Source: Raja brachyura
Lineage: Eukaryota
Direction of reading: 5' to 3'
Length of the DNA stretch: 36,521 nt
NCBI GenBank assembly: GCA_963514005.1
Contig: CAUPSL010001515.1
Coordinates: 1-36,521 of the forward strand
The translations under genes and the position numbers were made by a program. The notes under the pieces were generated by a model. That model saw only the letters and a program-made list of their open reading frames with translations, did not search any database and was not told where the DNA came from. Each line of letters begins with the position of its first letter. Position 1 is the stretch's first letter. Shown here piece by piece: positions 9,418 to 9,904 of the stretch.

Positions 9418-9724
9418 GTGAAATTTCTAAACCTAATGTCTTGTAAAGCTGTAGCATGACATCCCAACGTCTACACTTAATGCTCTCACTGATGATGGTC
9501 AATGTGCCAAAAGCCTACTTAACCACCATATCTACTTGTGATGCCACTTTTGAAGACCATCTTCCCAATAACAGGGTAACCAAATCGTTACAGAATAGTC
9601 CATATGTGTCCTCACCAATATCGTGCACAACTGTAATATGACCTCCCAAATTATATTTTTAATTCTAATTTGTTCTTGATCTTCATCAGTCAGGGTATTG
9701 GGTATATTTATGTTCTTTTAACAG

Positions 9725-9817
9725 AAGCTGAATTTCAAACAATGGAAGCTGACTTATCTGATCCTCATTTGTAAAACTATCGTCTGTGAAATAATTGTTT
9801 CTGCTTTAGCTTGCAAA
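9725..9817 (+). pseudogene. Degenerate duplicate of the TRBC transmembrane exon in intron 1
   Basis: Manual alignment to exon 3 gives 15 mismatches in 93 aligned nt plus an 8-nt deletion (CAAACTGC). The same tttaacag acceptor is retained; the original donor is lost. Confidence 0.9.
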
Positions 9818-9904
9818 AGTGCCACAACAATCCCTCTGTCTCCAGTGGAATAAAAATAATGGTTTTATTATCTGGAAGGTATGTCAAAACGCATAAGGGC
9901 ATGT

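Follow-up and report, generated by a model that had tools for sequence, protein, structure and literature searches.

A duplicated TM exon in intron 1 of a skate TCR-beta constant gene is very probably a decaying relic

The first intron of a TCR-beta constant gene (TRBC) of Raja brachyura holds a copy of the gene's own TM exon, and this copy is very probably what remains of an exon duplication within the gene, decaying neutrally and skipped by the main mRNA. It originated as a duplicate of exon 3, shares common ancestry with two further copies in a second TRBC gene (on contig C411), carries lesions independent of theirs and is passed over in assembled mRNA. A preliminary description of the locus had offered three readings, namely a terminal exon for a soluble TCR-beta chain, a poison exon and an inert relic. 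The last of these fits best, given the independent lesions in the sister copies and the skipping by assembled mRNA. The first two fared poorly, since neither the features of the proposed terminal exon nor the acceptor and donor of the proposed poison exon are present in the orthologous C411 copy, and the spliced contigs of three sequence runs skip the copy.

The window, which is the whole stretch of 36,521 nt that was analysed, corresponds to a 36.5-kb contig (G000:C1564) and carries a four-exon TRBC gene:

9067..9417, plus strand: TRBC exon 1, C-beta Ig domain (351 nt; phase-1 ends; donor with 6 of 9 consensus positions)
11518..11538, plus strand: TRBC exon 2, encoding the hinge and its interchain Cys (21 nt; exon 1 is spliced straight to it in contigs)
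14321..14427, plus strand: TRBC exon 3, the intact TM exon from which the copy derives
21868..21894, plus strand: coding part of TRBC exon 4, cytoplasmic tail and stop

A protein search with exon 1 yielded 15 homologues (two of near-equal length and 13 longer ones). Exon 1 is 50-54% identical to proteins annotated in sharks as TCR beta chain or T-cell receptor homolog, 82% identical to the skate-like protein P0004 and 73% identical to P0005 of Leucoraja erinacea. The proteins most similar to this C1-set Ig exon are thus TCR-beta chains, as required of a TRBC gene, and the other hallmarks of such a gene are present as well, namely a hinge exon with Cys, a TM exon with Lys and a short cytoplasmic exon, with exons 2-4 fitting the tails of the homologues. 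Contigs of runs X4 and X7 show a J-like segment spliced upstream of exon 1; a J-motif scan of the window, in which three N stretches are unreadable, found no J segment. A PDB sequence search ranked antibody domains first and was uninformative. The contigs that carry the two TRBC genes are short, at 36.5 and 38 kb. A 1032-nt inverted repeat pair (11558-12589 and 16337-17368, 89% complementary) flanks the intact TM exon 3. Inverted repeat pairs can promote exon looping, back-splicing or RNA editing, and skipping of exon 3 would be another possible way to a TM-less TCR-beta chain.

The copy and the signals around it are arranged as follows:

9438..9650, no strand: degraded interspersed-repeat fragments between exon 1 and the copy, presumably LINE-like; the same flank lies 5' of both C411 sister copies
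9704..9724, plus strand: copied exon-3 acceptor region, AG at 9723-9724 (pyrimidines at 12 of 17 positions versus 13 of 17 in true exon 3)
9725..9817, plus strand: the copy itself, a decayed duplicate of exon 3 (connecting peptide and TM), with an 8-nt deletion near 9744
9772..9774, plus strand: stop codon TAA of the shifted frame, due to a single C-to-T change from the exon-3 sequence; missing from the orthologous C411 copy
9849..9854, plus strand: AATAAA, not found at the matching C411 place; low-depth contigs continue beyond it
9876..9884, plus strand: donor-like site AAG/GTATGT with its boundary at 9878/9879, 8 of 9 consensus positions; the C411 copy has no GT there

The preliminary description had reported a copy of exon 3 about 300 nt after exon 1 and upstream of the hinge exon, and this holds: the copy starts at 9725, 307 nt downstream of exon 1, and blastn aligned 9704-9817 to 14300-14421 with 78.7% identity over 122 columns (E 1e-25); within the exon body the alignment to exon 3 has 78 identities in 93 letters (84%) and a single gap of 8 nt. 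Such similarity far exceeds chance. The duplication is also real and no assembly artefact, since one contig from X5, a DNA-like run of the related organism C, covers 9045-9949 gaplessly with 13 differences. Alignment and translation further agree with the earlier account that the acceptor and phase 1 are kept and that the 8-nt deletion converts the reading into a short tail, which on translation of exon 1 joined to the copy comprises 16 residues and ends at TAA 9772-9774. The AATAAA and the 9879 donor that it listed are both present, and its arithmetic of a stop-containing cassette of 154 nt (9725-9878) is sound, the stop lying 104 nt upstream of the donor.

Homology to exon 3 stops at 9817, 6 nt before the end of that exon, so that the copy is without exon 3's own donor and the site at 9879 was not inherited. 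A functional duplicated exon, whether alternative or mutually exclusive, would be expected to keep its frame and both splice sites; here the 8-nt deletion has shifted the frame and the exon-3 donor is absent. What the copy does share with pseudoexons is homology to an exon of its own gene. The 9879 donor is closer to the consensus than the donor of exon 1 itself, and the acceptor looks equal to the true one. The proximity of both AATAAA and a good donor, each no more than 160 nt from the acceptor, speaks against a relic. By chance, 10% of the contig's 160-nt windows contain an AATAAA and 4% a donor with at least 8 of 9 consensus positions (9 of 1909 GT sites), and both signals are only modestly unusual for the contig.

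A search of the species' own genome with 141 bases of the copy returned six matches, which were the copy itself, exon 3 and four sites on contig C411. Exon 1 of the TRBC gene on C411 (74% amino acid identity) was the only other close one among 118 matches, with the next best at 44%. The elements of this second gene are:

37635-37285, minus strand: C411 exon 1
36786-36693, minus strand: C411 copy 1, the positional orthologue of the window's copy
25989-25969, minus strand: C411 exon 2
23993-23955, minus strand: C411 partial copy 2, downstream of exon 2
21489-21383, minus strand: C411 intact exon 3a, with exon 4a from 19248
7763-7657, minus strand: C411 intact exon 3b, with exon 4b from 5651

C411 exon 1 clusters with Leucoraja P0005 and not with exon 1 of the window (support 92/92, below the star threshold of the tool; 83.5% versus 74.1% identity). 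This places the split of the two genes, and by inference the copy, before the split from that skate lineage, barring later gene conversion. The possibility that C411 is an allele or haplotig was considered and is unlikely, as its exon 1, which clusters with the Leucoraja protein, has 51 differences in 351 bases.

Copy 1 on C411 has its location and both flanks in common with the window's copy, and it has likewise lost the exon-3 donor. A tree of six TM-exon rows, none of them dropped, separated the three copies from the three intact exons (support 100/99), and in a tree of the exon bodies (five rows, the partial copy omitted) the two full copies clustered with support 99/96. The three copies nevertheless carry three distinct sets of disabling lesions. 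In C411 copy 1 the acceptor AG has become AT, a 1-nt and a 6-nt deletion stand in place of the 8-nt one, the matching codon is not TAA, the AATAAA is missing and the equivalent of 9879 lacks a GT; its nearest AG, 2 nt downstream, would yield Gly followed by a stop. C411 copy 2 has lost 1 nt at the acceptor, keeps the 8 nt and ends after 39 nt; it is frameshifted and truncated. Since the sister copies are without them, the non-inherited features that could make up a switch arose in this gene alone. In a comparison of the two paralogues, the copy is identical at 77 of 92 positions (83.7%) and its own 5' flank at 71 of 85 (83.5%), whereas the coding exons reach 85-87% and are free of indels. The substitution rate therefore fails to separate the copy from the coding exons, and it is the indels and the loss of splice sites that carry the argument.

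The C411 contig also contains two intact cassettes of TM and tail exons in tandem (minus strand, 21489-19222 and 7763-5625; L007-L009) together with one exon 2. The cassettes are 84-88% identical across most of about 7 kb, and His replaces the conserved Tyr in the distal TM exon. They could represent alternative last-exon pairs or a younger relic, and their presence points to repeated duplication of this part of the locus.

Splicing was assessed from seven sequence runs of four studies, the contigs of six of which were aligned (X6 was left out). None of the seven is recorded as RNA, and X1, X4 and X7 were taken as RNA-derived from their exon-joining contigs alone. These data consist of contigs only, from which rare isoforms drop out and in which depth is a poor measure of expression; no tissue is recorded and there are no junction counts, strands or ends. 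Exon-joining contigs in X4, X7 and X1 (studies P2, P4 and P1, respectively) skip the copy. The X7 contig (depth 54) has the junction 9417^11518. In X4 (depth 102) and X1 (depth 7.4), 9417 is followed by 49 letters, consisting of exon 2 and 28 nt of exon 3, then by a stretch that aligns to the copy with 12 differences, and after this the contigs run on into exon 4. The 12 differences equal the number of mismatches between copy and exon 3, and the five of them that are listed are all exon 3's letters. The length of 49 letters, the 12 differences, the five listed letters and the continuation into exon 4 together indicate that the X4 and X1 contigs carry true exon 3. As true exon-3 sequence maps onto the copy, the latter could mislead gene models or read mapping. 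Exon 1 in X4 is identical to the window, and the run shares its sample label with the best DNA runs and may be the source of the assembly. A 33-nt stretch of exon 1 that is identical in both TRBC genes (9306-9338) has a depth of 230 in X4 compared with 102-112 in its neighbourhood; this roughly doubled depth suggests comparable expression of the C411 gene.

The junction 9417^9725 is not among the two joints in the complete joint table that covers the copy-skipping contigs of X4 and X1. In the table that contains the X7 junction, 92 joints lie outside the part covered and may include 9878^11518; for the loose ends that belong to the former table the coverage excludes 10. No contig end at 9878 and no poly(A) end was found in the records covered, which were 4 of 4 for X7, 6 of 6 for X1 and 7 of 9 for X4; in X4 the coverage leaves out the acceptor (9712-9740), in X1 no separate contig lies on the copy, and neither gap counts as evidence. 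A low-depth X7 contig (depth 4.5; 9454-9941) is unspliced across the acceptor, the AATAAA and the donor, its one 45-nt gap lying upstream and having non-splice ends. Low-depth X4 contigs cover 9758-9905 without a gap (depth 3.7) and 9500-9650 (depth 2). These contigs, which overrun the hexamer by 87 nt in X7 and at least 51 nt in X4, look like unspliced pre-mRNA or DNA. Organisms C and D retain the acceptor, the 8-nt deletion, the TAA, the AATAAA and the donor. This retention has little power, since their sequences are about 98% identical throughout, and both of the two differences found in C and D within the would-be coding 50 nt alter a residue. Among the related organisms, that of X1 has a 3-nt deletion at 9213, within exon 1, and that of X7 is missing 45 nt of intron 1 at 9534-9578.

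These observations bear on the possibility of a regulated poison exon, in which the 154-nt cassette 9725-9878 would be included in some T cells and introduce a premature stop, so that NMD lowers the level of TCR-beta mRNA. NMD targets premature stops that precede the next junction by more than 50-55 nt, and the stop 104 nt ahead of the donor lies past this limit, with the acceptor and an 8-of-9 donor both in place. An NMD-sensitive form would also be scarce and may drop out of contigs. Poison exons are typically highly conserved, however, and the copy is no more conserved between the paralogues than its flank, and the orthologous C411 copy lacks both splice sites. As the junction into the cassette is also not in the complete joint table and the X7 and X4 contigs cross the donor unspliced, a poison exon is very unlikely.

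The same signals could instead be used in an Ig-like switch, with splicing to 9725 and cleavage after 9854 leading to a secreted VDJ-C-beta chain that has neither the hinge Cys nor the TM segment. For such a terminal exon the acceptor (9725), phase, stop (9772) and AATAAA (9849) are present in a workable order. The title of a 1990 paper (PMID 2140571) refers to secretion of a truncated TCR beta chain, which makes a soluble form feasible in principle, and according to PMC5928244, intronic polyadenylation by skipped terminal exons removes TM domains and is common in human immune cells. The product would, however, require an 8-nt deletion and a C-to-T change that are private to this gene, the sister copies giving a different product or none. 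Signal and tail, absent from the C411 copy, are kept only in the organisms with about 98% identity, where both differences change the tail, and the low-depth contigs continue past the hexamer. Used intronic sites are described in PMC5928244 as more conserved than unused AATAAAs, unlike the site at 9849. Taken together, the Ig-like switch appears highly improbable.

The acidic character of the tail needs no special cause, since any TRBC TM exon gives such a tail when translated in the +1 frame. In that frame the intact exon 3 likewise yields an Asp/Pro-rich run, and a white-shark model (P0007, Carcharodon carcharias) ends in the shifted frame of its TM exon with a similar Asp/Pro run, which is probably due to a gene-model or assembly error. 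The tail forms the C-terminus of none of the 15 homologous proteins, which counts against the switch.

It was also considered that the copy once was a working alternative last exon, encoding the TM segment and a short new tail but no hinge Cys, which later died and is inert today. The old TM frame is open beyond the end of homology in both full copies; in the window it extends over 42 codons from 9725 and stops at the TAA inside AATAAA (9725-9853). A short open frame is unsurprising at about 16% divergence, however, and none of the five AGs found in a scan of 9640-9770 gives access to this frame from the phase-1 donor of exon 1. In the old frame of the window's copy the conserved Tyr is replaced by Cys and one Gly by Glu, and the copies share the Tyr-to-Cys and a Ser-to-Thr change at TM positions where the 15 homologues hardly vary. 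These shared changes suggest decay from the start, and a formerly functional exon is extremely improbable.

A decaying relic, the preferred reading, would have arisen when, ahead of the divergence of the two TRBC genes, a single intragenic duplication placed in intron 1 the exon-3 acceptor together with most of that exon, possibly mediated by the surrounding repeat fragments. Having no donor, the copy would never have been defined as an internal exon and would have drifted, with the 8-nt deletion, the TAA, the AATAAA and the 9879 donor as presumed lineage-private by-products. Trace mis-splicing into the copy may happen, and NMD would be expected to clear its product.

Optional exons have been noted in TCR-beta constant genes before: the mouse gene reportedly has an optional constant exon between J and C, C-beta-0, which is in frame and occurs in cDNA. 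Unlike the copy, C-beta-0 is no duplicate of a TM exon; a literature search returned no paper relevant to it. Duplications in TRGC are another instance of intragenic copies of a post-Ig-domain exon in a TCR constant gene, and include human TRGC2 EX2, EX2R and EX2T as well as EX2A-C of ruminant, dog and salmon TRGC (PMC7349638). These TRGC duplicates concern a connecting-region exon and are in frame and spliced in, whereas the TRBC copy derives from a TM exon and is out of frame and skipped. Pseudoexons, defined in PMC10776996 as intronic exon-like sequences with one or both splice sites that are normally skipped, and decayed tandem exon duplicates resemble the copy in being skipped; here the duplicate origin is clear and the lesions are independent. 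It differs from the usual decayed tandem duplicates by its location upstream of the hinge exon rather than beside its source, and by the existence of three sisters distributed over two paralogues. With the switch between membrane and secreted IgM, and with intronic polyadenylation by skipped terminal exons, the copy has in common an upstream poly(A) signal that would strip the TM exons (PMC5928244). Secreted IgM is made in abundance and under regulation, and intronic sites that are in use show conservation, whereas no use of the site was seen here and the paralogue lacks the signal. A literature search, outside which most subscription papers fell, found no report of the copy or of a natural soluble TCR-beta chain in elasmobranchs.

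The loss in the paralogue is compatible with later recruitment in this gene alone, as a function acquired here only would not show in the paralogue. Recruitment of the dead TM duplicate restricted to the skate lineage, yielding a secreted rearranged TCR-beta chain in a cell type or state outside the three runs, has a very small probability. If it were true, a cartilaginous fish would secrete a TCR chain by the mechanism of antibodies, with a bearing on whether membrane-only TCRs are ancestral. As a relic, which the copy very probably is, it would be of minor importance and would record the repeated internal duplication of the 3' halves of skate TRBC genes.
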